From positions 1 through 62,757 of the forward strand of contig CAVTCR010000015.1 of assembly GCA_963733195.1 (NCBI GenBank): a DNA stretch of 62,757 bases, read 5' to 3'. Each line of letters begins with the position of its first letter. Positions within the stretch are counted from its first letter, which is position 1. Positions 1-61,886 of this stretch are shown in pieces. Source of the DNA: an uncultured delta proteobacterium (lineage in GTDB: Bacteria > Desulfobacterota > Binatia > Bin18). The notes beneath the pieces are model-generated. The model did no database searches. It saw nothing but the letters and a program-made list of their open reading frames with translations, and was not told the origin of the DNA. Position numbers and translations under genes: made by a program.

Positions 1-943
1 GAACGGGTAGTAGGAAGAGCAGACAGCGATCCGCTACAAGCTAGCACCTCGTGATAACGTGAGTGAGGTGCCTAAAAAGGCTTGGTCCTTATTTTTCAGC
101 TCCGCTAGGTAGCGTTAGGACGTTAGGCCGCAGGATTTTGCAGCCCAACAGAAGTGAAGTCACGCTTGCAATGACAACAGCAAAAGTGGTGCAGGTTGAG
201 CAGTTTTTATGATCAACTTGTGAGGCGGCGTAGTTGTGATGGGCTGCACGGCCGTGCGGCAATTGCGAAGAGCAATCGGCAGCCCATATAGCGTTGAACG
301 AAACCGCTGCGCGGTGGCTCGTCGTATCGTAACAATCGGTGATTTCCCTTCCCAGTCTTATCTCCTAGCTCTGTGCCCAGGCTTGGCAACCACCATCCCA
401 GTGAGTCATGACCTCCGTAAATTACCGCGACGTGGTCGAACTGGCCACGTACGTCAAGGAGGTCAGTATGGGCGAGTTACGGGATCGGATGCAGCAGGAC
501 CTGATCCTGCACGGGATGGCGCCGCGCACCCGCGAGTCGTATCTGGCAGCGGTGCGGGGATTGGCCACGTACTATCACCAACGGCCCGACACCCTTAGTG
601 AGGTGCAAGTTCAGACCTATGTCCGCTACCTGATTGAGGAGCGCCGGCTGGCGCCCAGTAGCGTGCGGGTAGCGGTGATGGGCTTACGCTTTTTCTACAC
701 CCAGACCTTGCAGCGTCCGTGGACCAATTTGCCGTTACCCAAACGGACGAAGACCCTGCCTGAGGTGCTTAGAGGCTATCCGGGAACTGCCTATCGTTTT
801 AGGCGGCCTCTTTTCGGTAATGGAATTCCGGGTGGGGTACCGGACTTAGCCGATGGAGCATTAACTGGATGTTACGCAGATGGATCTGCGCGGCACTGGA
901 TTCGGGCTTGCGCTCATAATCTTTGCTGTGGCGGCGGGCGCGC

Positions 944-2404
944 CATTGGTCACAACTTACGGACTGTCCCACACTACTTGTTCGGTGTCGTGAATCTCGC
1001 GATGGCGCTTTGCGTTGACGTTTAACGAGGCCTAAGAGCTTGGCGTGGTGGACCAGATAGGCACCAAATCGACGGTTTCACCGCGCGTGAGGGCCCGACT
1101 ATAATGGTAGAAGGCGCGAAACACCATCTCTACCGAGATCCGTTCGAGGGGTTCATTGAGGCTCTGAGCCACCTGCTGACAGACATTGAGGAGCACGAGG
1201 TAGAAGAGGAAGGTGGCATAGAGTTGGAGTTGGACGCCATTGGCCGAGGCTTTCCAGAGATAGGCGAGATCGAGCACCCGTTTGGTCACCAAGAAGGCAT
1301 CTTCTATGCGCCAGCGCCGCCGATACAACTCACAGATGTGGCGCGCGGAGAGCTGAGTGGGATCAAGCACGTTGGTGAGATAGCGATACCACTGCCCGCG
1401 CCACAAGACTGAGACCAAGCGTAAGGGATGACGGCAAGGATGGGAGGGATGGAGGCCGACCTCAATGAGTTCATCGCGATAGTACGGGCCGTGCGCGAGC
1501 ACGCTGGGTGAGGCGATAGGCCGTCTTTTGGCGCAAACGGGTCACGAAGAATTTCTGCTGGTCGGTAAAGTCATCAAACCACAAGAAACTAAAGAAGCCC
1601 AAGTCAAAGATCAGCAAGCCCCGTTCCGGCACGGCGGCGAGAATCTCCGCCGCAAAGCGTTTATCATTGGCCGCCGCATCTTCGGTATAGAGTTGCCACA
1701 GGGGACGATGGGTAAAGGCTTCGACCATCGCCATCACGCGGCCTGCGAGGACGAGGCCGGGCTGAGCCTGCAGCGTCTGGGTTTTTTTGCGCAGCGCTTC
1801 GAGCGTCGAGCCATCGACCATGGCAATGCGGGAAAAGCGCGCCCGGACCTCGGCCCAGCTTCTCCAGGCCGGGCAGCTGCGGTGGGGACTGCCCCTGCAA
1901 GCGGGCGCTCACCTCGGTAAAAACAGCTGCCAGAGCACGGGCGGGTAAAGTATCCAGCCGTTTGGCGATGGCTTGTTCACTAACCTGGAGCGGGGAGACC
2001 CACAGCAAGCCGTCTTGGACGACGACCCGCTGCACTTCGGCAATCGCGCCTAAGCGGCGCCACACCAGGCTCACGATCAGGGCCACCATCACCGGTAACG
2101 TCAAAATCCGCGCCCGCAAGCGGATCAGCCGCTCGGGATTACGCGGGTCGCGTCGTTCCAGGTGGCGCGGCGCAAACAACGCCGGCGTCAGTAACGCCGT
2201 CAGCTCCGCTTCGATCTCCGCCACTGAAGGCATCGGGCCCGGGACCCGATGGCGAAAATCAGGATTCCCACGCCCTCGTTTGTTGCGCTTGACCATCTCT
2301 CACCTCTTGATTGTAGATCGTGAGAGAATAACGGATTAGCCGTCTCGGGAAAGCCGCTGTTTGTCAGGTCCCTGTGCCCCGTTCCCGTTAAGTTGGGACC
2401 GGTG
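944..2404 (-). mobile_element. IS4-family insertion sequence nested in the IS5 element
   Basis: Imperfect TIRs CATTGGTCACAACTTACGG / CCGTTAAGTTGGGACCGGTG; 10-bp TSD GCGGGCGCGC (934-943, 2405-2414). Confidence 0.9.
957..2296 (-). CDS. IS4-family DDE transposase (frameshifted over three ORFs)
   Basis: Motifs VDGST, IFDLGF, YLTN and YRRRWRIEDAF (YREK signature). Confidence 0.88.
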
Positions 2405-3756
2405 GCGGGCGCGCCCATGGAAGCCATTGGTCCGTTCCACCACCCAGCGCTTGGGAAGCGGAACAAAGCCCGTGCTCCCCACTGGCCGTTTCTTCACTTC
2501 GATCCGCCATCCGGGCCGATGCTCTTTGAGCCACGCGGCCAAGTCATGATTGTGATACTTGCTATCGCCAAAAATGACCGTGAGCCGCGGGAAATCCGTC
2601 CGCACTGATTTGGGCAAGGAGCTTGACGGCGGGGGCCCCATCATCGAGCGCCGCGCTCGTGATCAAGACGACGAGCAGCAACCCAATCGTGTCAACCAGC
2701 ACATGGCGTTTGCGCCCGTTGATTTTCTTGCCTCGTCATACCCGCGCTCTGCGCCCCCCACTTCTGTCGTCTTAACCGATTGACTGTCGATGCAGGCGGC
2801 ACTGGGAGGGCTCGCGCCCTTCTTGCACGCGCACGCGGGTGCGCAACAGGCTGACGATCTTGGCCCACGTGCCGTCATCCCGCCACTGCGCAAAGTAATC
2901 GTACACGGTACTTTTGGGGAGCAAGTCGTGCGGTAACATCTCCCACTGACACCCGGTCCGATTCTGATACAGCAACGTGTCGAGTACGGCACGCATATCA
3001 ACACGGCGAGGCGCCCCGCCGTGTTGGGTGCGGGGTGAAGGCAGCAGCGACTTCAGAATCACCCATTGTTCGTCGGTCAGATCTGACGGATACCGCTTCC
3101 GTGCGTGTTCCGGCTTCGCCATGCTCGCGTACTCCTCTCGTTCAGGTTGTACGCCAACTATCCAATAATTCTCGACTTTTGCCAACTAGAGTTCCCGGAT
3201 AGCCTCTTAGTCGCGAGGAGGTCGCGCGGCTGCTGGCCAGTACCACCACGGTGCGCGAGCGGGCGCTATTGATGGCGACGTATGGCGGTGGACTGCGGGT
3301 CAGTGAAGTCGTGCGGCTTACGCGTCGGGGATATTGACGCCGGGCGGGGGATGCTGCGGGTCGAGCAAGGCAAAGGGCGCAAGGATCGCTACACGCTGTT
3401 AGGGCCGCGCCTGTTAGCTGAGTTACGCCACTACTGGCAGGTGTATCGCCCAACGCCGCCGTGGCTGTTCCCGCAGCGGACCAAGCCCGTGCCGATGGAT
3501 ACCTCGACCGCGCAGAAGATTTACTATGCGGCCAAGGCGCGGGCCGGCATTACCAAGGCGGGCGGCATTCACGCCTTGCGCCATGCCTTTACCACCCACT
3601 TGCTGGAAGGGGGCGCGGATCTGGCGACCTTGCAACGCTTGCTCGGGCACGAAAGTGTCACGACCACCATGCACTACGTGCACGTGGCGCGTAGTCACGT
3701 GGCCGCCCAGGGTCTCCGCTGGAGAGCTTACCGGAGGTCGTGCAGCGGGGTAACCC

Positions 3757-4986
3757 ATGCCGCGGCTGTCGTCGCCACCGACAGCGACCGGCGCCGCCGC
3801 CCATCCGTCCCCACCGCCCTTTGAGGTGGCCGACATCGTGCGGGCGTATGGCGCGGCATTTCGCGCGACGCACCCCGTCTCGCACGAGCAAGCACGGGTG
3901 CTGCGGGCGATTGCGCAGTGCCGCACGGCTGCTTTCGGCGGCCATGTCGAAGTGTGTGAGCGGTGCGGCACGGAACGGCTCTGTTACGACTCCTGTCGCA
4001 ATCGCCACTGCCCCAAGTGCCAAGGCAGCGCCCGGGCCAAATGGCTCGCAGCCGAGCAGGCCTTGCTGCTGCCCATTCCCTACTTCCACGTCGTCTTCAC
4101 CCTCCCGCATCGGCTCAATCCGCTGATTCGGGTCAACCAACGCCTCCTCTACGACCTCTTGTTCCAGACGGCCGCCCAGACCCTGCAGGAGTTCGCGCGG
4201 GACCCCAAACATTTAGGGGCAGAACTGGGCATCACGGCCGTCCTCCACACGTGGGGCCAGACACTCACCGAGCATGTCCATGTCCACTGCGTCGTCACGG
4301 GCGGCGGCTTGAGTCCCGATGGGACGCAGTGGCGCAACTGTCGGCGGCGCTTTCTCTTTGCCGTCAAGGCGCTGAGCCAAGTCTTCCGGGGCAAGTATCT
4401 GGCCGGGCTGGAGCGATTGCGCAGCCAGCAGCGGCTGACCTTTGCCGGGCGAGAGCGCCGCCGTTGGCCGAGGACGCTGCCTGGACGGCCTTCCGTCAGC
4501 ACCTCTACGCCACGCCGTGGGTGGTCTACGCTAAACCGCCCTGGGGCAGCCCCGAGCAAGTCCTGAAGTATCTCAGCCGCTACACTCACCGCGTGGCCAT
4601 TGCCAATTCCCGGCTCGTCTTTGTCGGCGACGGGATCGTACGCTTTCGCTATAAAGATTACGCGGCTGAGGGGACGCCCAAAGTCATGGAGCTGCGGGCG
4701 GAGGAGTTCCTACGCCGCTTCCTGCTCCACGTCGTGCCCCCCGGCTTCGTGCGTATCCGCCACTACGGCCTGCTGGCCAATCGCACGCGGCAAGAGAAGC
4801 TCACCCGCTGCCCGCCAGCTCTTGGCGGTCGTGGCCGCCACGGCCACAGCCCTCCTGGCGCGCACGCAGCCCCGCCCACGGACACGAGCGCTCCTCCCGC
4901 CGCTTCCACACGGTGCCCCCACTGTGCCGGGAGTTCACTGGCGGATCATCGCCCTCCTGGCGCCCCAGCGAGGACTCCCGCCATGA
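3757..4986 (+). CDS. IS91-family rolling-circle (Y2) transposase (frameshifts near 4455 and 4813)
   Basis: Zn finger CERC...[32 protein letters not shown] (HUH), [11 protein letters not shown] (Y2), [12 protein letters not shown]. Confidence 0.92.
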
Positions 4987-5264
4987 CCCGTCTCCACGCC
5001 GTTCCTACTCTGCCCCTGTGGCACTCCTCACTACTCGTGACTTCCCTCACCGAGCGGTCTGGTCCCGTGCGTTCACATCCTGGCTCTTCCTTCTTCTCGC
5101 GAGCAATCAGAGCCGACACTCCTGCTCCTGCCCCGTCTCTTGCGCCAGTCCGTCTGCTCCTCCGCTTGGTCGCTGCCCGTTTCACCGCTCGTGCAACCAT
5201 TGGCAGGTCTCCTCAGACTCGATAGAATCCCCATAGCGCCGACGGCCTGTGGGGCCGCGGTTCC

Positions 5265-5355
5265 GTTCAACAGGATTTATCCGCCCTGCGACGAGAAGAC
5301 CGGGGAAGGCTCTCACTGTAGTACTGCAGGACGGATTAAATCCTTGGCGTTAGGT
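5265..5355 (+). other. attC-type recombination site 1
   Basis: R'' GTTCAAC (RYYYAAC), arms AGGATTTATCCG / CGGATTAAATCCT with one unpaired base, R' GTTAGGT. Confidence 0.75.
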
Positions 5356-5509
5356 CCAGATACTTCTAACAATGTATTAAGGAGGATACTCGATGCGAAA
5401 ACCAATTGCATCTTCGTTTGCAATGATAATCGCGCGCATCATGACTTCGCACGTCGCCCCGACTGTCTCGATGCCGGTGGCCCTGGCATTTCTCAAGGTG
5501 ATCCCTCCC

Positions 5510-6403
5510 ATGTTTCGTCCCACTCTGATACTTGCCTGTGTGTTGTTGATCTCGGTCCAGTCTCACGCCGACATCATCACGCCGCCTGGTCTCAGCCCGG
5601 GTGACCAGTTCCGTATCGTGTTCACCACGGACATCGACTACCGCATGCCAGCTACGTCGCCTAACATTGGCGACTATGACAATCTGATCCAAAATAACGC
5701 GGTCTTCGCCGGGCTGGACACATACAACGGACAAGCCGTGAACTGGATGGTACTGGGCAGTACGCCGGCCGTCTCCGCGGTATCCCGCGTTCCCCTGTCT
5801 TCGGACGTGCCAATTTACCGCGTCGATGGGGTCGAGGTCGCGGACAACGCGACGGACCTCTGGGACGGGTCGATCGATGCGCCGATCAACCTGACCGCGA
5901 GCGGGGGGGACACCGTTCAACAATCCGTCGAACACGTACTCGGGTTCCAACCCGAATGGTACAGCGGCCTCACCCTTCGGCGGCGGCAGTTTTGTTACGT
6001 TTGGCTCGTGGACGCGGGCAGACAGTGGGTGGTTTACCCTTGGTGCGGTTTTTGCTCCGAATGCTTCCTATACCTACTACGGGATTTCGGAGGTATTAAC
6101 TGTCCCAGATGCTGATACCGACGAGGATGGTGTGCCTAACGATGAGGATGATTGCCCCGATTCCGATCTGAGTGACACCGTTGTGATTGATGGCTGCGAT
6201 TCTGGGGTCACCAACACCTTGTCAGAAGACGGTTGCACGATTACTGACCTCGTTGCAGAATGCGCCGAGGACGCTAGCACCCATGACCAGTTCGTGAGTC
6301 TGTGTCGCTAATTTAACAATGCCCTGAAGCAAGCCGGCACCATCACGGGTCGGCAGGAAGGGCGCGATCGCAACGCTGTGCCGCGCAGGCTGACATACCC
6401 TAA
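5510..6403 (+). CDS. Secreted protein cassette gene (PGLxPGDQFR-type N-domain; C-terminal DxDxDG/Cys-rich region), frameshifted
   Basis: Signal peptide MFRPTLILACVLLISVQSHA followed by DIITPPGLSPGDQFRIVF. A shifted frame gives DTDEDGVPNDEDDCPDSD...CAAQADIP*. Lies between attC1 and attC2. Confidence 0.65.
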
Positions 6404-6514
6404 CCTCTCAAGCTCCGAGCAAACGGGGGCGAAGTAGATTTTTCCAGTGTTGTCAGAGAATCCGGGGCGGGGGGCCAGCGGGCGGAGCTCCCGGCATCCC
6501 TTCCCCTGGACCAA

Positions 6515-6596
6515 GCCTAACTTGGGCGTGCAGGCGACGGCGTACAGCGTCCGCTACGCTCCCGCTTCCCGCCGCGCCTGACGCCTGGCGTTAGGT
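6515..6596 (+). other. attC recombination site 2
   Basis: GCCTAAC...GGCGTGCAGGCG / CGCCTGACGCC (extrahelical base)...GTTAGGT; canonical layout. Confidence 0.9.
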
Positions 6597-6632: not shown

Positions 6633-6830
6633 ATGACTCTCGAAGAGCTTGAATCAGCGGTTGTCACCCTGCCGCCCGGAGACTTGGCGCGTTTCCGCGA
6701 GTGGTTTGAGGAATTCATGGCTGAGCAATGGGATCAGCGCATTGAAGCGGACATCAAAGCCGGCAAGTTTGCTGCTGCGGGCAAACGGGCTGACAGCGAC
6801 TTTGAGGCGGGTCGCTGTACAGAGTTGTGA
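6633..6830 (+). CDS. Putative antitoxin of a cassette-borne TA pair
   Basis: 65 aa acidic protein (WDQRIEADIKAGK) with GTGA overlap into the toxin gene. Confidence 0.75.
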   Translation: MTLEELESAVVTLPPGDLARFREWFEEFMAEQWDQRIEADIKAGKFAAAGKRADSDFEAGRCTEL

Positions 6831-7079
6831 AGCACTTTGCGTCCCCGGAGTTCTGGTTTCACTATCGGCAGCTGCCGGAAGACATTCGCAGTCTCGCTGA
6901 CAAGAACTACGCCCTGCTCAAGACCGACCCTCGGCATTCCTCCGTGCGTCTCAAAAAAGTCGGAGAGTTTTGGGTGGCACGGGTTGGCTTGCATTACCGG
7001 GCGCTGGCGAAGGAACGGGCAGAGGGATTGGTCTGGTTCTGGGTTTGGCTTCCATGCCACCTACGATCAAATGATATAG
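6827..7079 (+). CDS. Putative RelE/ParE-superfamily toxin (frameshift near 7040)
   Basis: MKHFASPEFW...DPRHSSVRLKKVG..WVARVGLHYRAL...WFW, then HATYDQMI* in a shifted frame. Confidence 0.75.
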
Positions 7080-7088
7080 CGTTGCTCC

Positions 7089-7182
7089 ACCTAACCTGCC
7101 AGTGCAGTGCATCGGCAGGGACGTAGCTCCGTGTGTTCGTGAAAGGTTGCGGTTCCCCGCCGGGCGCTGACCGGCAAGGCGT
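7089..7182 (+). other. attC site 3, interrupted in its R' box
   Basis: ACCTAAC, arms TGCCAGTGCAGTGC / GCGCTGACCGGCA, ending GGC-GT where GTTAG is expected. Confidence 0.8.
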
Positions 7183-7290
7183 GTGTGCCGGGCATGTCTC
7201 AATGCTTGGAGGTGAAAGTCCTCTGTCCAGTGAGGTGGAGGCGAAGGACAAGGGAAGCGCAAGGGCGTCACCGTGAGGGTGCGTACTGAT
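7183..7290 (+). mobile_element. Group IIC intron 5' fragment (start of domain I only)
   Basis: GTGTG 5' consensus followed by CCGGGCATG...GGAGGTGAAAGTCCTC...GGAAGCGCAAGGGCGTCACCGTGAGG, typical of IIC 5' ends. No RT ORF or D5/D6 seen. Confidence 0.75.
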
Positions 7291-7601: not shown

Positions 7602-7730
7602 GACGGACAATCTGCCGCCGGGCGTTATTTAATAGTCTTTTACATTCTTAAGCTGACTGGGGCACTCTTGCCTATTTCCGCCCGTGACATGGATGATGCC
7701 GAGAGGAGATATTATGAGAAACAAAGATAA
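7602..7730 (+). pseudogene. 3' remnant of a BrnT-like toxin
   Basis: GQSAAGRYLIVFYILK...PISARDMDDAERRYYEKQR* (ISAR motif), overlapping the antitoxin start; 5' half absent. Confidence 0.75.
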
Positions 7731-7989
7731 AATTCGTGATCCATTACCAGAGACGTTTGCAACGGAAGAAGAAGCTGGAGAATTCTGGGATACGCACAGC
7801 ACGACGGATTATGAAGAATATCTGGAGCCTAGCGAGGACGAGATTGAGATCCAGCAGCGCATTTTTGAGGTGCCGGTAGAGGCAGATGTCTTTCGCCGGC
7901 TCCAGCAAGAGGCGCGGAGTTTACACGAAAGCGTACCCAAAGTCGTTGATCACATTTTACGTGAACGGCTTACCATGACCGATTCCTAA
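7714..7989 (+). CDS. CopG/BrnA-like antitoxin
   Basis: F.TEEEAGEFWDTHSTTDY N-terminal motif plus RHH-like C-terminus. Confidence 0.8.
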   Translation: MRNKDKIRDPLPETFATEEEAGEFWDTHSTTDYEEYLEPSEDEIEIQQRIFEVPVEADVFRRLQQEARSLHESVPKVVDHILRERLTMTDS

Positions 7990-19934: not shown

Positions 19935-21428
19935 ATGGGCCAAGTATCACAAGTTCTACCGGAAGCCGTCCGCGGTTTCATCACGCCGACCAGCAAAAAA
20001 ATGCTCATCGGTGGCAAGTGGGTTGATGCAGCATCAGGAAAGACGTTTACCACGGTTAATCCAGCAACGGCGGAGACCCTCGCCATGATCGCCGAAGGCG
20101 ATGCAGAGGATGTAAATCGTGCGGTTGCGGCTGCTCGCAAAGCCTTTGATGACGGGCCGTGGCCGCACATGAAGCCTGCAGAGCGAACGAAGATCTTGTT
20201 AAAAGTCGCTGATCTTATCGATAAACATGGTGACGAGCTGGCTCAACTAGAAACGCTTGATAATGGCAAGACTCTCTTCGAGTCACGTAACGTTGATATT
20301 CCCGGCGCGGCGGAAACCTTCCGCTACTATGCTGGTTGGCCGACGAAGATTTATGGTGAGACTAATCCCTCTGATCCCTCGTTCTTCAATTACACCTTAC
20401 GTGAACCAGTAGGCGTGTGTGGTCAAGTTATTCCGTGGAACTTTCCGCTTTTAATGGCGGCATGGAAACTGGGACCAGCATTAGCGTGCGGCAACACCGT
20501 TATACTGAAACCGGCAGAGCAGACACCGCTCACTGCCCTCCGTCTCGGTGAGTTGCTGTTGGAAGCTGGCATACCTGAAGGTGTCATTAATATCGTGCCG
20601 GGATTTGGTCCTACAGCAGGGGCAGCTATCGCCAACCATCCGCAGGTCGATAAGGTTGCGTTTACTGGCTCGACGGAAGTCGGCAAAGAGATTCTCAAAG
20701 CCTCGGCTGGCAATCTCAAGCGAGTCTCATTAGAGCTCGGTGGAAAGTCTCCAAACATTGTGTTTGTCGATGCCGATCAAAACGCGGCGGCGGCAGGTGC
20801 CTTTATGGGTATCTTCTTCAACCAAGGGCAAGTCTGTTGCGCTGGGTCGCGGTTGTTTGTCGAGCAAAAGATGTACGATCAGTTTGTTGATACCTTATCG
20901 TCTTCGGCTGCTTCGATTAACCAGGGGCCAGGGCTGGATAAAGATGCTCGTCTTGGACCGTTAGTGTCGCAAGAACAATACGAACGCGTGCTCGGATATA
21001 TCGACATCGGCAAGAAAGAAGGTGCGCAAGTCAAAGTTGGCGGAGAAGCAAATAGTGCACTTGGTAAAGGCTATTTCGTCAAGCCGACTGTTTTTGCCAA
21101 CGTCAACAATTCTATGCGAGTGGCGCAAGAAGAAATCTTCGGCCCTGTGGTTACCGCTATACCATTCAAAGATGAAGAGGATGTAGTCCGTCAGGCGAAT
21201 AACACGATTTATGGTCTAGCTGCTGGCGTTTGGACAAAAGACGTCTCCAAAGCCCATCGGATTTCCCGTGCCTTACGAGCGGGGACAGTATGGGTGAACT
21301 GTTACAATCAGCTCGATCCTATTTCTCCGTTCGGTGGTTACAAGCAGAGTGGCTTTGGTCGTGAACTTGGACACTACGCATTAGAGCTGTACACACAAAT
21401 TAAAAGTGTGTGGCTCAAACTAGACTAG
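19935..21428 (+). CDS. NAD(P)+-dependent aldehyde dehydrogenase (ALDH1/2-like)
   Basis: [46 protein letters not shown]. Confidence 0.96.
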   Translation: MGQVSQVLPEAVRGFITPTSKKMLIGGKWVDAASGKTFTTVNPATAETLAMIAEGDAEDVNRAVAAARKAFDDGPWPHMKPAERTKILLKVADLIDKHGDELAQLETLDNGKTLFESRNVDIPGAAETFRYYAGWPTKIYGETNPSDPSFFNYTLREPVGVCGQVIPWNFPLLMAAWKLGPALACGNTVILKPAEQTPLTALRLGELLLEAGIPEGVINIVPGFGPTAGAAIANHPQVDKVAFTGSTEVGKEILKASAGNLKRVSLELGGKSPNIVFVDADQNAAAAGAFMGIFFNQGQVCCAGSRLFVEQKMYDQFVDTLSSSAASINQGPGLDKDARLGPLVSQEQYERVLGYIDIGKKEGAQVKVGGEANSALGKGYFVKPTVFANVNNSMRVAQEEIFGPVVTAIPFKDEEDVVRQANNTIYGLAAGVWTKDVSKAHRISRALRAGTVWVNCYNQLDPISPFGGYKQSGFGRELGHYALELYTQIKSVWLKLD

Positions 21429-37970: not shown

Positions 37971-39487
37971 ATGGCTGCAGTATCAACAGAAACAACCCCA
38001 CGTGTTAGTAACCCGGTTACCGTCAACAAAGCGACGCTCGACTTTCTTGCCGGTGCCCCTAAGCAATTACTCATCAATGGCAAGTGGGTTCCGGCAAAGT
38101 CAGGAAAAACGTTTGACGCAGTCAACCCAGCCACCGAAGATGTCATCGCTCGGGTTGCTGAAGGTGACAAAGCCGACGTAGACGAGGCGGTCAAAGCAGC
38201 GCGCAACGCCTTTGAATCAGGCAAATGGTCCAATATGAGTCCGCACCAGCGCGCCCGCTATGTGTTCAAGATGGCCGATATTATCGAAGCGCATGGTGAA
38301 GAACTGGCCGAACTCATCACCTTAGAAAACGGCAAGCCGATTACCGAGTCCGAAGCCGAAGTCGTCAGAGCGGTGGATGCTTTTCGCTATTACGCGGGGT
38401 GGGCCACTAAGATTTATGGCGAAACCAATCCGTCGGACCCGAGCTTTTTCAATTACACGTTGCGTGAACCAGTCGGTGTGTGTGGCCAGATCATTCCGTG
38501 GAATGGTCCACTCTCAACCGTGAGCTGGAAAGTCGCACCAGCGCTTGGCGTGCGGCAACACGTTGATCTTGAAACCTGCCGAGCAAACGCCGCTGGTGGC
38601 GCTGCGGCAGGCGAACTGATGCTTGAAGTCTGGCCTTCCGGAAGGTGTCATAAATATCATTACGGGCTTCGGTGAAACCGCTGGAGCGGCAATTGCCAGT
38701 CATCCAGACATCGACAAGGTGGCGTTCACTGGTTCGACTGAAGTCGGCAAGTTGATTCTGCAGGCGTCTGCCGGCAATCTCAAACGTGTCTCGCTGGAGC
38801 TGGGTGGTAAATCACCAAACGTGATCTTTCCTGATGCTGATCTCGAACAAGCGGCACGCGGCTCTGCACTCGGGATCTTCCGCAATCAGGGACAAGTCTG
38901 CTGTGCCGGCCTCGCGCATGTTTGTCCAAGAGCGAGTGTATGACGAGTTCGCTGAGCGGCTCTCTTCGAGAGCCGGCGAGATCAAACTTGGGCAGCCGTT
39001 GGACCGCCAGACCACCATGGGGCCATTGGTCTCGAAAGAGCAGCACGAACGCGTGCTCGGATATCTCCGTCTCGCTCAGCAGGAAGGGGCAAATGCCAAG
39101 ATCGGTGGCGAACGTGGACCGCAGGATAAAGGCTATTTCGTGAAGCCGACGGTGTATACCAAGGTCAAGAACGACATGCGCATTGCGCAAGAAGAGATCT
39201 TCGGTCCTGTCGCGGTTGTCATTCCGTTCAAGGATGAGAACGACGCCGTGTTGCAGGGCAACGACACCACTTATGGATTGGCGGCTGGCGTGTGGACCAA
39301 GGATGTGAGTCGTGCGCACGCAGTGGCGCGCAAGCTCCGGGCCGGTTCGGTCTGGGTCAACTGTTACAACATGATTGATCCCATCTCCCCGTTCGGCGGC
39401 TACAAACAGTCCGGGTTCGGGCGAGAGCTGGGGAAACATTCGATCGAACTCTACACACAGATCAAGTCGGTATACGTGAAATTGTAA
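37971..39487 (+). CDS. Aldehyde dehydrogenase, paralog of 19935-21428 (frameshifted)
   Basis: Shares [27 protein letters not shown]; [30 protein letters not shown]. Confidence 0.93.
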
Positions 39488-60527: not shown

Positions 60528-61886
60528 TTATTGGGCAGACAGGAACACGTAGAGCCGCCCCACAGCGACTTTGTCAAGAATGATTTGGCCGGTGGCACCG
60601 ATGACAAAGTCGGGAATATGGTCGCCATTGATGTCACCTAGAGTGACGAGACTGTAACCAAGCGATGATCCTTGATGCGGAAAGGGATTATCAAACGTGG
60701 TGAGCAGTTTTCCGTCTTTGCCATCGAACAGGAACGCTTCACCCTGGAGATGGAACTGGTCGACCGTTTGATACGGTGCACCGATGAGAATATCAGGAAT
60801 GCCATCGTGATTGATGTCGAAGTTACTCGCGAACGAGAAACCGAAACCGGAGTACGCACGCGCATGAGCCGGATTGCGAAGGCACGGAGGAGACTGCCAT
60901 CCGCACCATTGAAGACAAAGGCAGCACCTTCGGCGCGACTAGTATCGCTGTCTTTATACGGTGCACCAACAAGTATGTCCGGTATCCCATCGCCGTTGTA
61001 ATCGCCCCCTGACGCGACTTGCCAGCCGAATCCTTCTCCCCTGCGTGGTGAGGGGTCGTCCATTGCGAAAAGAAGCTTTTGGGTGTGGCCACTAAATGCA
61101 TAGACTCGCCCTTGTACGGGGACCTGGCCTACGGTTGTGTACGGCGCACCAATAAGAATATCTGGAGCTCCGTCGTGATCAAGGTCGCCGCCTCCAGCAA
61201 CCGACCAGCCAAAGGCGCCCTCTTTCGCCCCAAGCGGAGGAACAAAGGTGTGTACTACATGGCCATCTTTGCCATCGAACACAAAGACACGACCATTGCC
61301 TTCTTGCGCAAAAGCGCCAACGAGGAGCTCGGGAATATGATCACCCGTGAGATCGCCGACCACGCCAACCGACCACCCGAACCCCGCGCCGGCTTGCGGC
61401 TGCGGGGCGCGAAGGGTACGCAACAGCATGTGAGTTTTTCCGCTGACAACGTACGCCGCGCCGCTCTTCTCCTGGCCAAATGCCCCGACGAGTAAGTCAG
61501 GGACGGTATCTTGATCGATGTCACCGATCGCAGCCAACGCGCAGCCGAACGCCGCCCCTTCGGTCGGGTCCATGGCTGCAGCGACCTCGGGTGATAACGC
61601 CGGTGGGTCGAGAGTAAACAACACTGTCCGGCGCCGTCCGCTAAAGACGAAGACGCGTACCTTGCTTTGCCGCTTGGGTGCCATGGTATGTGTAAGCGCC
61701 CACGGCGTAATCGGGAAAGTGGTCTCCGTCGAGGTCCCCGACCACGGCGAGCGTTGAAGCAAACCCGGTAAAAGGAATGCGCTCGGGACTCTCAATAATC
61801 TGGGTAGCGGCGTGGGCTGCACTGCCTCCCCATCCCAGGAGGACCTCAAGGACAACCACGCGAGTCACCACACCGAGCCACCACAT
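60528..61886 (-). CDS. Secreted FG-GAP (integrin-alpha beta-propeller) repeat protein (frameshifted)
   Basis: Signal peptide; repeated FG.S....GD..GD..PD.LVGAP units; reconstructed end GRLYVFLSAQ*. Confidence 0.88.

Follow-up and report, generated by a model that had tools for sequence, protein, structure and literature searches.

The element described here lies near the beginning of contig CAVTCR010000015.1 (assembly GCA_963733195.1) from an uncultured delta proteobacterium of the Binatia; the whole stretch of 62,757 nt was analysed and is called the window below. It is near certain that this unit is a decayed member of the IS91 family of rolling-circle insertion sequences (IS), and equally so that it belongs to a subgroup in which a simple tyrosine recombinase of the IntI/Xer-like type, lacking the insertion specific to the integron integrase IntI, is encoded directly 5' of the Y2 (HUH) transposase. 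The native element measures, again with near certainty, about 2.6 kb, and its span of 294-5351 here is due to two nested IS insertions in the recombinase gene. Our results revealed that in this family the two ends meet at a short common core, which lies at the base of a conserved hairpin, and that insertions of one subfamily, found in several unrelated samples, coincide exactly with the integron crossover point and have the orientation of a cassette. Once joined, the ends resemble a folded attC site in layout, with mirrored asymmetry, and the family may move much as integron cassettes do. An earlier reading of the window from its letters alone (the original prediction) had taken the region for a self-mobile integron cassette carrying its own attC, an interpretation that is partly supported by the results given here.

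Both genes named in that reading are present, the recombinase being matched by PF13495 and PF00589 and the transposase by PF14319 and PF04986 (Table 1), and the alignment with the IntI of the host bears out that the recombinase has no IntI-specific insertion. Moreover, the motifs HVHVH and YLSRY, which we take to be the catalytic motifs of the transposase, are visible in the transposase sequences. Neither gene is intact in the window. An outer IS of 2.4 kb splits the recombinase gene, and both genes are frameshifted: compared with the intact relative at locus L025 (L numbers denote loci of relatives, C numbers contigs of the host genome, C15 being that of the window), the catalytic part of the recombinase has extra frame disruptions near 3320 and near 3710 and an in-frame stop, while the transposase is spread over three reading frames in the list of open reading frames (ORFs), that is, it has at least two frameshifts. 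The outer IS is flanked by CTTAG on both sides (768-772 and 3206-3210), and in metagenome contigs 944 is joined to 2425, across the inner IS4-like element. Because of the nested split and the frame disruptions, the window copy is a pseudogene remnant; the original prediction mentioned neither the 2.4-kb split nor the frameshifts. This copy is dead, and therefore the interest lies in the family.

The boundaries of the element could be placed to the base. The left junction reads ATAGCG↓TTGAAC and the right one TTGGCG↓TTAGGT, so that the span is 294-5349 if cut as G↓TT, or 296-5351 if cut after GTT; as for an integron cassette, the G↓TT of a GTTRRRY core is found at both ends, within an attC array. 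Two contigs from a rhizosphere metagenome (run X1) are an independent confirmation of both breakpoints: one of them (record 1) aligns from 293 on and has 138 unlike letters before, and the second carries the next cassette from 5353 on behind a different left neighbour. The breakpoints relied on are 293, 5353 and 944/2425; a joint 603 to 3209 in a single contig is weak, its shorter side having 29 letters. The unit had been drawn from 122 to 5355. Its genes, the core GTTAGGC at 122-128 and the palindrome at its right are real, but its start was misplaced, since the likeness to the copy on C66 and to the metagenome begins at 293. What lies before is an ORF-less unit of 179 bp, which is found on six contigs (C15, C43, C77, C74, C56 and C19) at 80-96% identity, with a likeness that stops at 295. 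The other copies end in ...ATAGCGTTAGGY, the form of the empty site; in the window, ...ATAGCGTT↓GAAC...(element)...GGCGTT↓AGGT is found instead, and therefore the element interrupted an R'-type core. More specifically, the insertion point is the GTT of the terminal GTTAGGY that closes the 179-bp unit in a small cassette array, and the element has the orientation of a cassette. As a mobile unit with cassette bounds, the recombinase and transposase pair is thus confirmed in its bounds, with G↓TT at both ends and a split GTTAGGY, but what is left of it here is a remnant.

The two genes form a pair throughout the family. A search of species-representative genomes with the Y2 piece gave 597 matched stretches, of which at least 592 are relatives, from hosts including Acidobacteriota, Alphaproteobacteria, Planctomycetota, a metagenome-assembled genome (MAG) of Kuenenia and others. 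In the best 80 loci, which were examined for the gene pair, the catalytic part of the recombinase lies directly 5' of the transposase gene in 78, and intact pairs exist at L025 and L035. The L025 transposase scores 433.1 bits on NF033538 (cut-off 125) and is by this measure clearly an IS91-family transposase; on NF052416, the model of ISCR clade Ia, a relative scores 32.9 bits (cut-off 925). The recombinases of the family are 32-33% identical to the host IntI, with which they have in common the catalytic columns R178, K203, H309, R312, H335 and Y344 (R, K, H-x-x-R, H, Y), and they lack about 25-35 residues at the place of the IntI insertion in this alignment. On the IntI model TIGR02249 (cut-off 265) relatives score 155-197 bits, in two stretches skipping the middle, and the pieces in the window 63 and 29 bits; no recombinase of the family reaches any NCBIfam cut-off. 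With neither the IntI score nor the IntI insertion, and with a SAM-like domain and the catalytic residues, they are simple Xer/IntI-like recombinases. A passage of bioRxiv 10.1101/542381 states that recombinases borne by IS91 elements are the closest homologues of IntI, without its insertion, and our results agree with this statement.

The exact ends were defined from near-identical copy pairs in single genomes and from a natural tandem. The left end of the family consists of (C)CGTTTGAAC or TTGAAC, N, AA(A/G)CCGC and a short palindrome; the right end consists of a repeat complementary to the left end, a long imperfect hairpin, a tail of 4-12 nt and the core. In the window, 296-317 is an inverted repeat of 5256-5271. 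The left-end pattern GAACNAAACCGCTRCGCGRYGG was found in at least 119 metagenome stretches holding 120 copies, and the three nucleotides before GAAC in these 120 listed copies are GTT (83), ATT (13), GAA (10) or others (14). In loci that show both ends, the trinucleotide of the left end recurs at the right one, namely ATT/ATT in L115, L182 and L126 and GTT/GTT in L118, L136 and L162. Because the same trinucleotide stands at both ends, the core is specified by the element and common to the target. When the ends are joined as in a circle junction, they fold into one long hairpin in five of the five cases tried, and GTTGAAC, which pairs perfectly with GTTCAAC, would be restored at the junction.

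The fold of the right end covaries: among 16 relatives the share of paired cells is 76%, while shuffles give 60% and slid partners 34-51%, and 14 of 19 pairs have changed on both sides. Moreover, of the 66 loci with enough sequence, 50 (five training sequences included) have a gene-strand match to a covariance model of the right end (R2), 361-524 nt downstream of the Y2 match. On the strength of this covariation and of the R2 matches across relatives, the palindrome at 5272-5344 and its tail are the element's own right end, neither captured nor borrowed and not a canonical attC. A conserved terminal fold in homologues, on which the earlier proposal had been made to depend, is thus found. The ends are also those of the IS91 family: a terIS palindrome with a GTTC-type tetranucleotide at the left, an inverted repeat with a hairpin at the right, and no target duplication. 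Unlike in IS801 and IS1294, the conserved left block extends 2-6 nt beyond GTTC. The target is not the GTTC/CTTG of IS91 either: to the right of the element the flanks read AGGT, GGGC, GGGC, AGCC, CAAG, AGGC, CGGC and AGAT, only one of the eight being GAAC/CAAG on the plus strand, and the target is the shared (G/A)TT core.

Whether the right-end palindrome is an attC was examined with a proxy attC covariance model (R1), which is home-made from 12 sites; it has 18 pairs, 89.9% of its cells are paired and it covaries strongly. Its structure was set by hand, and eight of 20 candidate attCs were left out of it (L153, L175, L208, L026, C32, C65, L167 and C1). On the minus strand the palindrome of the window reaches 15.2 bits (E 0.18), and on the plus strand R1 finds nothing at E up to 10. 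This is like the wrong strand of a true attC, since that of the attC at 6515 scores 14.4 bits, while attCs outside the training set score 33-50 bits and true attCs overall 33-63 bits. On this proxy model, the claim that the element has its own attC is not supported. As for the weaker claim of an attC-like palindrome at 5265-5355, the boxes GTTCAAC and GTTAGGT and the one extra base are indeed there, and complementary R-like boxes (GTTCAAC/GTTGAAC) with a crossover at GTT give it the outline of an attC; but the extra base and the 4-nt tail stand on the opposite arm. In the element the extra T and the sole spacer (TGGC) are both on the 3' arm, whereas in the top strand of a true attC the extra bases belong to the 5' arm and each arm has a spacer, and the right end has neither the two-sided spacer nor the extrahelical bases of the 5' arm that make up the canonical layout. 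Judged by eye, it is because of this placement of the extra base and the spacer that the R1 score is low. For annotation, the palindrome should not be named attC, and such units should be described as IS91-family elements inside arrays, not as cassettes. A first attC heuristic (strict boxes plus RNA energies), which over the whole genome gave 209 matches, many of them false, including a 73-bp tandem on C51, and which missed the hairpin of the window element, was used for candidate picking only.

The host genome (6.9 Mb, 87 contigs) was searched by BLAST with the two halves of the element. It holds one further full-length copy, on C66, which is 77% identical and frameshifted at other positions than the window copy, and five right-end remnants, on C48, C65, C47, C77 and C18; the search also matched 101-295 of the window, as a repeat of its own, to five other contigs. 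All seven right ends are alike through ...CCTT(G/T)(G/A)CGTT and then diverge, and attCs on the same strand, of 33-63 bits, lie within a few kb of five of the seven copies (C15, C48, C47, C65 and C77). An intact IntI gene is encoded at C33:20009-20953 on the minus strand (477 bits, cut-off 265), besides several IntI fragments with stop codons (the contigs named are C33, C32 and C1). In a genome-wide R1 scan, in which 150 of 3163 candidates were scored, no attC match was listed beside the intact C33 gene. Matches to the attC model are scattered over at least 15 contigs, so the host genome has many arrays without an integrase.

Relative to chance, cassette-oriented insertions at attC R' boxes are strongly enriched among family members. 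At the right junctions of the window subfamily RRRY follows GTT in 5 of 9 cases, and in 7 of 11 when the related L118 and L136 are added (P about 1e-6 at a chance rate of 1/16). In a hairpin test anchored on R'' and blind to polarity, which replaced a choice of the lowest-energy AAC...GTT that favoured long spurious folds, a hairpin precedes the GTT in 7 of 46 junctions, the figure for control GTTs being 16 of 617 (Fisher P 5e-4), or in 4 of 46 against 1 of 617 at a stricter cut, and the polarity is that of the top strand in all seven clear cases. With R1 at 25 bits or more, 36 matches were found in 23 of the 119 listed metagenome loci, 34 of the 36 being on the strand of the element, and a match ends exactly at the left junction in 13 of the 119 (eight training members and five independent ones); for example, the left end of L026 abuts an attC of 35.4 bits that is outside the training set. 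The original prediction had required homologues to insert at attC sites. This did not hold for the family as a whole, in view of the 13 left junctions out of 119 and of the acidobacterial copies, whose flanks differ and which adjoin another recurrent motif. Some targets are hairpin-tail-GTT units like the 179-bp repeat, and the left flank of L118 is related to the 3' end of that repeat.

Concerning the mechanism, the reading that we favour would run as follows. As in the IS91 model, where rolling-circle replication displaces the minus strand, the Y2 transposase would release this strand in the form of a single-stranded circle. In the circle the left end would pair with the right subterminal repeat to give one long imperfect hairpin, with an R-box-like outer stem (GTTCAAC/GTTGAAC), a one-sided spacer of 4-12 nt and an inner stem with a conserved TTTATC motif; geometrically, such a layout would match an attC bottom strand in its folded state, the crossover falling at the AAC beside the spacer. 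The IntI-like recombinase of the element would then exchange the hairpin strand with the GTT/AAC core that another hairpin has at its base; this partner might be the R' box of a true attC, the end of a resident relative (giving tandems) or another palindromic repeat, and replication would finish the insertion. That the recombinase performs the integration through the folded circle strand is a tentative view, to which we give a little less than an even chance. It is favoured because the pair is almost always kept together, because the orientation is one-sided with respect to attC polarity although R boxes occur on both strands, and because the minus strand has its crossover next to the spacer, as the attC bottom strand has. 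The IntI insertion reads extrahelical bases, and in a recombinase without it the mirrored asymmetry would be tolerable, which is a further reason. Circles with a terIS-oriIS junction are described for IS91-type elements in a passage of PMC13181058. A division of labour in which the HUH enzyme makes the circle and the recombinase integrates it would fit the geometry of the junction, as far as sequences can tell. Going further, the pair might constitute a self-mobilising 'proto-cassette', in which the joined ends of the HUH circle would fold into an attC-like substrate and be recombined by the nearest relative of IntI, bottom-to-bottom, with attC R' boxes or look-alike hairpins; in this specific form we think the idea rather unlikely to be right.

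A number of observations weigh against integration by the recombinase. The right-end hairpin mirrors the asymmetry of canonical attCs, and in the other copies of the element the palindrome scores 9-19 bits on R1, usually best on the opposite strand. The junction counts are partly circular, as ten of the twelve R1 training sequences come from loci of these same elements. Most relatives insert away from attC sites, and in the wider family the sequence to the right is not RRRY; there is no attC near the C66 and C18 copies among the candidates scored in the host scan, none of 25 bits or more in 96 of the 119 listed metagenome loci, many of them on short contigs, and R1 found nothing for L035, L050 and L082. 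Among public sequencing runs, none contained more than 0.09 of the sampled words of the stretch, the aligned contigs were from other organisms, and no circle, joint or empty site of the same strain was seen. Moreover, the left end has the canonical layout of an IS91 terIS, with the palindrome next to GTTC, and IS91 relatives without a recombinase transpose by the HUH enzyme alone. A tyrosine recombinase crossover and an HUH nick at RYYY↓AAC would alike be expected to leave a short core that the target and the joined ends each contain once, and the HUH nick explains the shared-core signature equally well.

It is thus a real possibility, though well short of an even chance, that the Y2 transposase does everything, nicking RYYY↓AAC at both ends and in the target, with a terIS GTTC↓AAC that resembles an R box by chance; the recombinase would then be an accessory, for tandem or dimer resolution or for regulation like Orf121 of IS91, and the link with attC a by-product of likeness in sequence. 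According to passages of PMC13181058, a palindrome with GTTC also forms the terIS of IS801 and IS1294, and the target tetranucleotide of IS91 relatives resembles the terIS cleavage site, with no target duplication. The tetranucleotides on the minus strand of our right ends (ACCT, GCCC, GCCC, GGCT, CTTG, GCCT, GCCG and ATCT) are GYYC-like, the preponderance of non-attC sites speaks for the same view, and the head-to-tail tandem of L050 would fit read-through rolling-circle replication. However, RYYYAAC is present on both strands of an attC, yet the R' box is used in cassette orientation only (7 of 7 in the hairpin test, 34 of 36 R1 matches). The recombinase gene, too, abuts that of the transposase in 78 of 80 loci, which suggests a core role, and the minus strand of the right end resembles the attC top strand, so that simple mimicry of its own oriIS would probably predict the opposite orientation. 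A true cassette, moved between attC and attI by the intact host IntI of C33 with the right-end palindrome serving as attC, is improbable. Such an enzyme is available (477 bits against 265), the G↓TT bounds on both sides and the restored GTTGAAC of the circular junction, the perfect complement of GTTCAAC, are as it would need them, and five of seven host copies are in attC arrays; but the palindrome scores far below the 33-63 bits of true attCs and best on the wrong strand, and its extra bases and spacer share an arm with the crossover, opposite to what true attCs show. By the canonical rule IntI would cut the other box, 5265-5271, which is not the boundary observed, and the same end structure and shared core are present in relatives with no attC match nearby. 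Finally, an ordinary IS might lie beside an attC-type core by coincidence, the palindrome being a terminator or an unrelated repeat, and indeed GCGTTAGG is not enriched in the window (three against 1.7 expected, by itself not significant). This is hardly credible, being already contradicted by the seven copies that end at the same base, by the covarying conserved fold in 50 of 66 relatives and by the junction statistics (P 1e-4 to 1e-6).

Compared with known systems, the family is nearest to the IS91 elements that bear a recombinase. ISfinder is said to hold an IS91 subgroup with an upstream 'phage integrase' gene, under names such as ISAzo26, ISSod25 and ISWz1. The 'Integron-like' tyrosine recombinase subgroup of Smyshlyaev et al. 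(bioRxiv 10.1101/542381) matches these recombinase-bearing members. Like these, our elements have a transposase above the NF033538 cut-off, an upstream recombinase without the IntI insertion, a terIS-like left end, right-end palindromes and no target duplication. The IS91 family, its recombinase-bearing members and, by the passage of the same source, the kinship of their recombinases with IntI are already known. A full-text literature search, ISfinder, TnPedia and supplements aside, returned no account of the ends, the shared core, the junction hairpin or the insertion at attC R' boxes in cassette orientation, and nothing on the role of the recombinase or the insertion sites of recombinase-bearing IS91 elements. 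With respect to the literature searched, the exact ends, the shared (G/A)TT core and the insertion at attC R' boxes in cassette orientation are new here.

With integron cassettes the elements share the G↓TT of GTTRRRY, an imperfect palindrome having R-box-like outer boxes and an extra base in the inner stem, the same strand as the other cassettes in arrays and tandem insertion next to like sites. Unlike cassettes they have a one-sided spacer, extra bases on the opposite arm and 9-19 bits on the proxy attC model, they encode their own recombinase and transposase, and most relatives are outside arrays. An observation of the same kind exists in another genus: a one-sentence remark in PMC9229058 places ISShvi3, an IS91-like element, next to an attC in a Shewanella integron, in a passage that gives no ends, recombinase, orientation or mechanism. 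The same source names IS1111-attC elements and class C-attC group II introns, which are mobile elements targeting attC. Both specialise in attC sites as landing pads, a point of likeness to our elements. IS1111-attC elements have a DEDD transposase, and class C-attC introns have a reverse transcriptase and insert in the opposite orientation; neither has a pair of HUH and IntI-like enzymes. In ISCR1 and the complex class 1 integrons, an IS91-like rolling-circle element is likewise physically linked to integrons, but it lies beside the 3' conserved segment instead of at an attC crossover point, and the passage on it in PMC8876359 describes no recombinase.

These findings bear on how a mobile element may produce by itself the single-stranded substrates for recombination at folded sites, and on the relation of the IntI/attC system to recombinases borne by transposons; naturally intact copies of the element exist for both questions. 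If the proto-cassette reading were true, folded-DNA recombination at a GTT/AAC core would be older and wider than integrons, and integrons may descend from the recombination module of these transposons or may have given rise to it.

Table 1. Coordinates of the element, its target and its neighbours in the window (positions on other contigs are given with the contig).
Feature	Position	Strand	Description
Two adjacent R'-type cores	114-128	+	GTTAGGA 114-120, GTTAGGC 122-128; read from the sequence; start of the upstream repeat
ORF-less 179-bp repeated unit, insertion target	115-293	+	ends with hairpin (~246-290) + ATAGC + G(TT)
Other copies of the 179-bp unit	C43:20394-20577, C77:23216-23398, C74:15530-15714, C56:70335-70516, C19:97396-97549		
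Left shared core GTT, crossover region	293-295	+	C15/C66 likeness begins at GTTGAAC
Left end (terIS-like)	296-317	+	GAAC (reverse complement of GTTC), GAA, palindrome ACCGC-TGC-GCGGT (303-315)
Tyrosine recombinase, N-terminal SAM-like part	408-772	+	PF13495, 69.5 bits; truncated by IS insertion
Outer IS5-like insertion sequence	773-3205	-	DUF4096 and DDE_Tnp_1 pieces; inverted ends AGGCTATCCGGGAACT
Inner IS4-like insertion sequence, nested in the outer IS	~945-2424	-	DDE_Tnp_1 pieces
Tyrosine recombinase, catalytic part (RHRH...Y region)	~3211-3755	+	PF00589 at 3282-3821, 101.6 bits
IS91-family Y2 (HUH) transposase	3757-~4986	+	Zn-binding PF14319, 109.8 bits; Y2_Tnp PF04986, 82.5 + 113.2 bits
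Right subterminal inverted repeat	5256-5271	+	complementary to left end; contains GTTCAAC 5265-5271
Conserved right-end hairpin	5272-5344	+	arms AGGATTTATCCG... and ...CGGATTAAATCCT; one extra T on 3' arm
Right 4-nt tail TGGC and right shared core GTT	5345-5351	+	with flank reads GTTAGGT (5349-5355)
Next ordinary cassette	5350-6596	+	ORF 5393-6115 and canonical attC 6515-6596
Degenerate attC ending the small array	7089-7188	+	12.4 bits, E 0.8 (R1)

The 179-bp unit begins after a GTT(A/C)GGA core and finishes with a hairpin, ATAGC and GTTAGGY, and in appearance it is either an empty cassette or an attC of a long, non-canonical kind. The segment 115-293 was also considered as the left end of the element and rejected, being found without the element on five other contigs. 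In the same way a programmed frameshift in the Y2 gene was rejected, since the C15 and C66 copies are broken at different places. Relatives of the nested IS elements are present elsewhere in the host genome, IS5-like on C62 and IS4-like on C10 and C57, and also in soil metagenome contigs.

Among the relatives of the element, a Kuenenia MAG contig (L050, 148-5417) carries two identical copies head to tail with the core common at the joint, and an acidobacterial MAG (L034, 3502-5763 and 7375-9636) carries two copies 3.9 kb apart. Recurrent flanks are seen in non-integron relatives. On the right, (A/T)TC(A/G)GG...ACTAAT or ACCTAT is found in L035, L036, L041, L055, L058, L063, L072, L080-L082, L086 and L096; on the left, ...(A/T)ACTCA(N3-4)GTT or ...CTCACTTAATAGTT is found in L110, L127, L143, L147-L151, L156 and L162. 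Such flanks suggest that a different palindromic repeat may be a preferred target.

Downstream of the element, ordinary cassettes follow as had been predicted, with a canonical attC at 6515-6596, which scores 62.8 bits on R1 but is a training member, and the degenerate one at 7089-7188. The cassette at 5350-6596 is nearly letter-identical in the rhizosphere metagenome run X1, and its ORF encodes 240 aa with a hydrophobic N-terminus and no Pfam family. Two small overlapping ORFs at 6633-7126 (65 and 99 aa) have a toxin-antitoxin-like layout and no Pfam family, and a small ORF at 7684-7989 has a weak CopG-antitoxin match (25 bits, below the cut-off). An Rfam scan of the window gave no family at its gathering score. 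Elsewhere in the window, 20307-21244 and 38370-39306 form a diverged duplication of about 1 kb, 72-80% identical and 18 kb apart, and near the window end, at 60595-61736, a unit of about 170-185 bp is repeated seven-fold, both probably in coding sequence.

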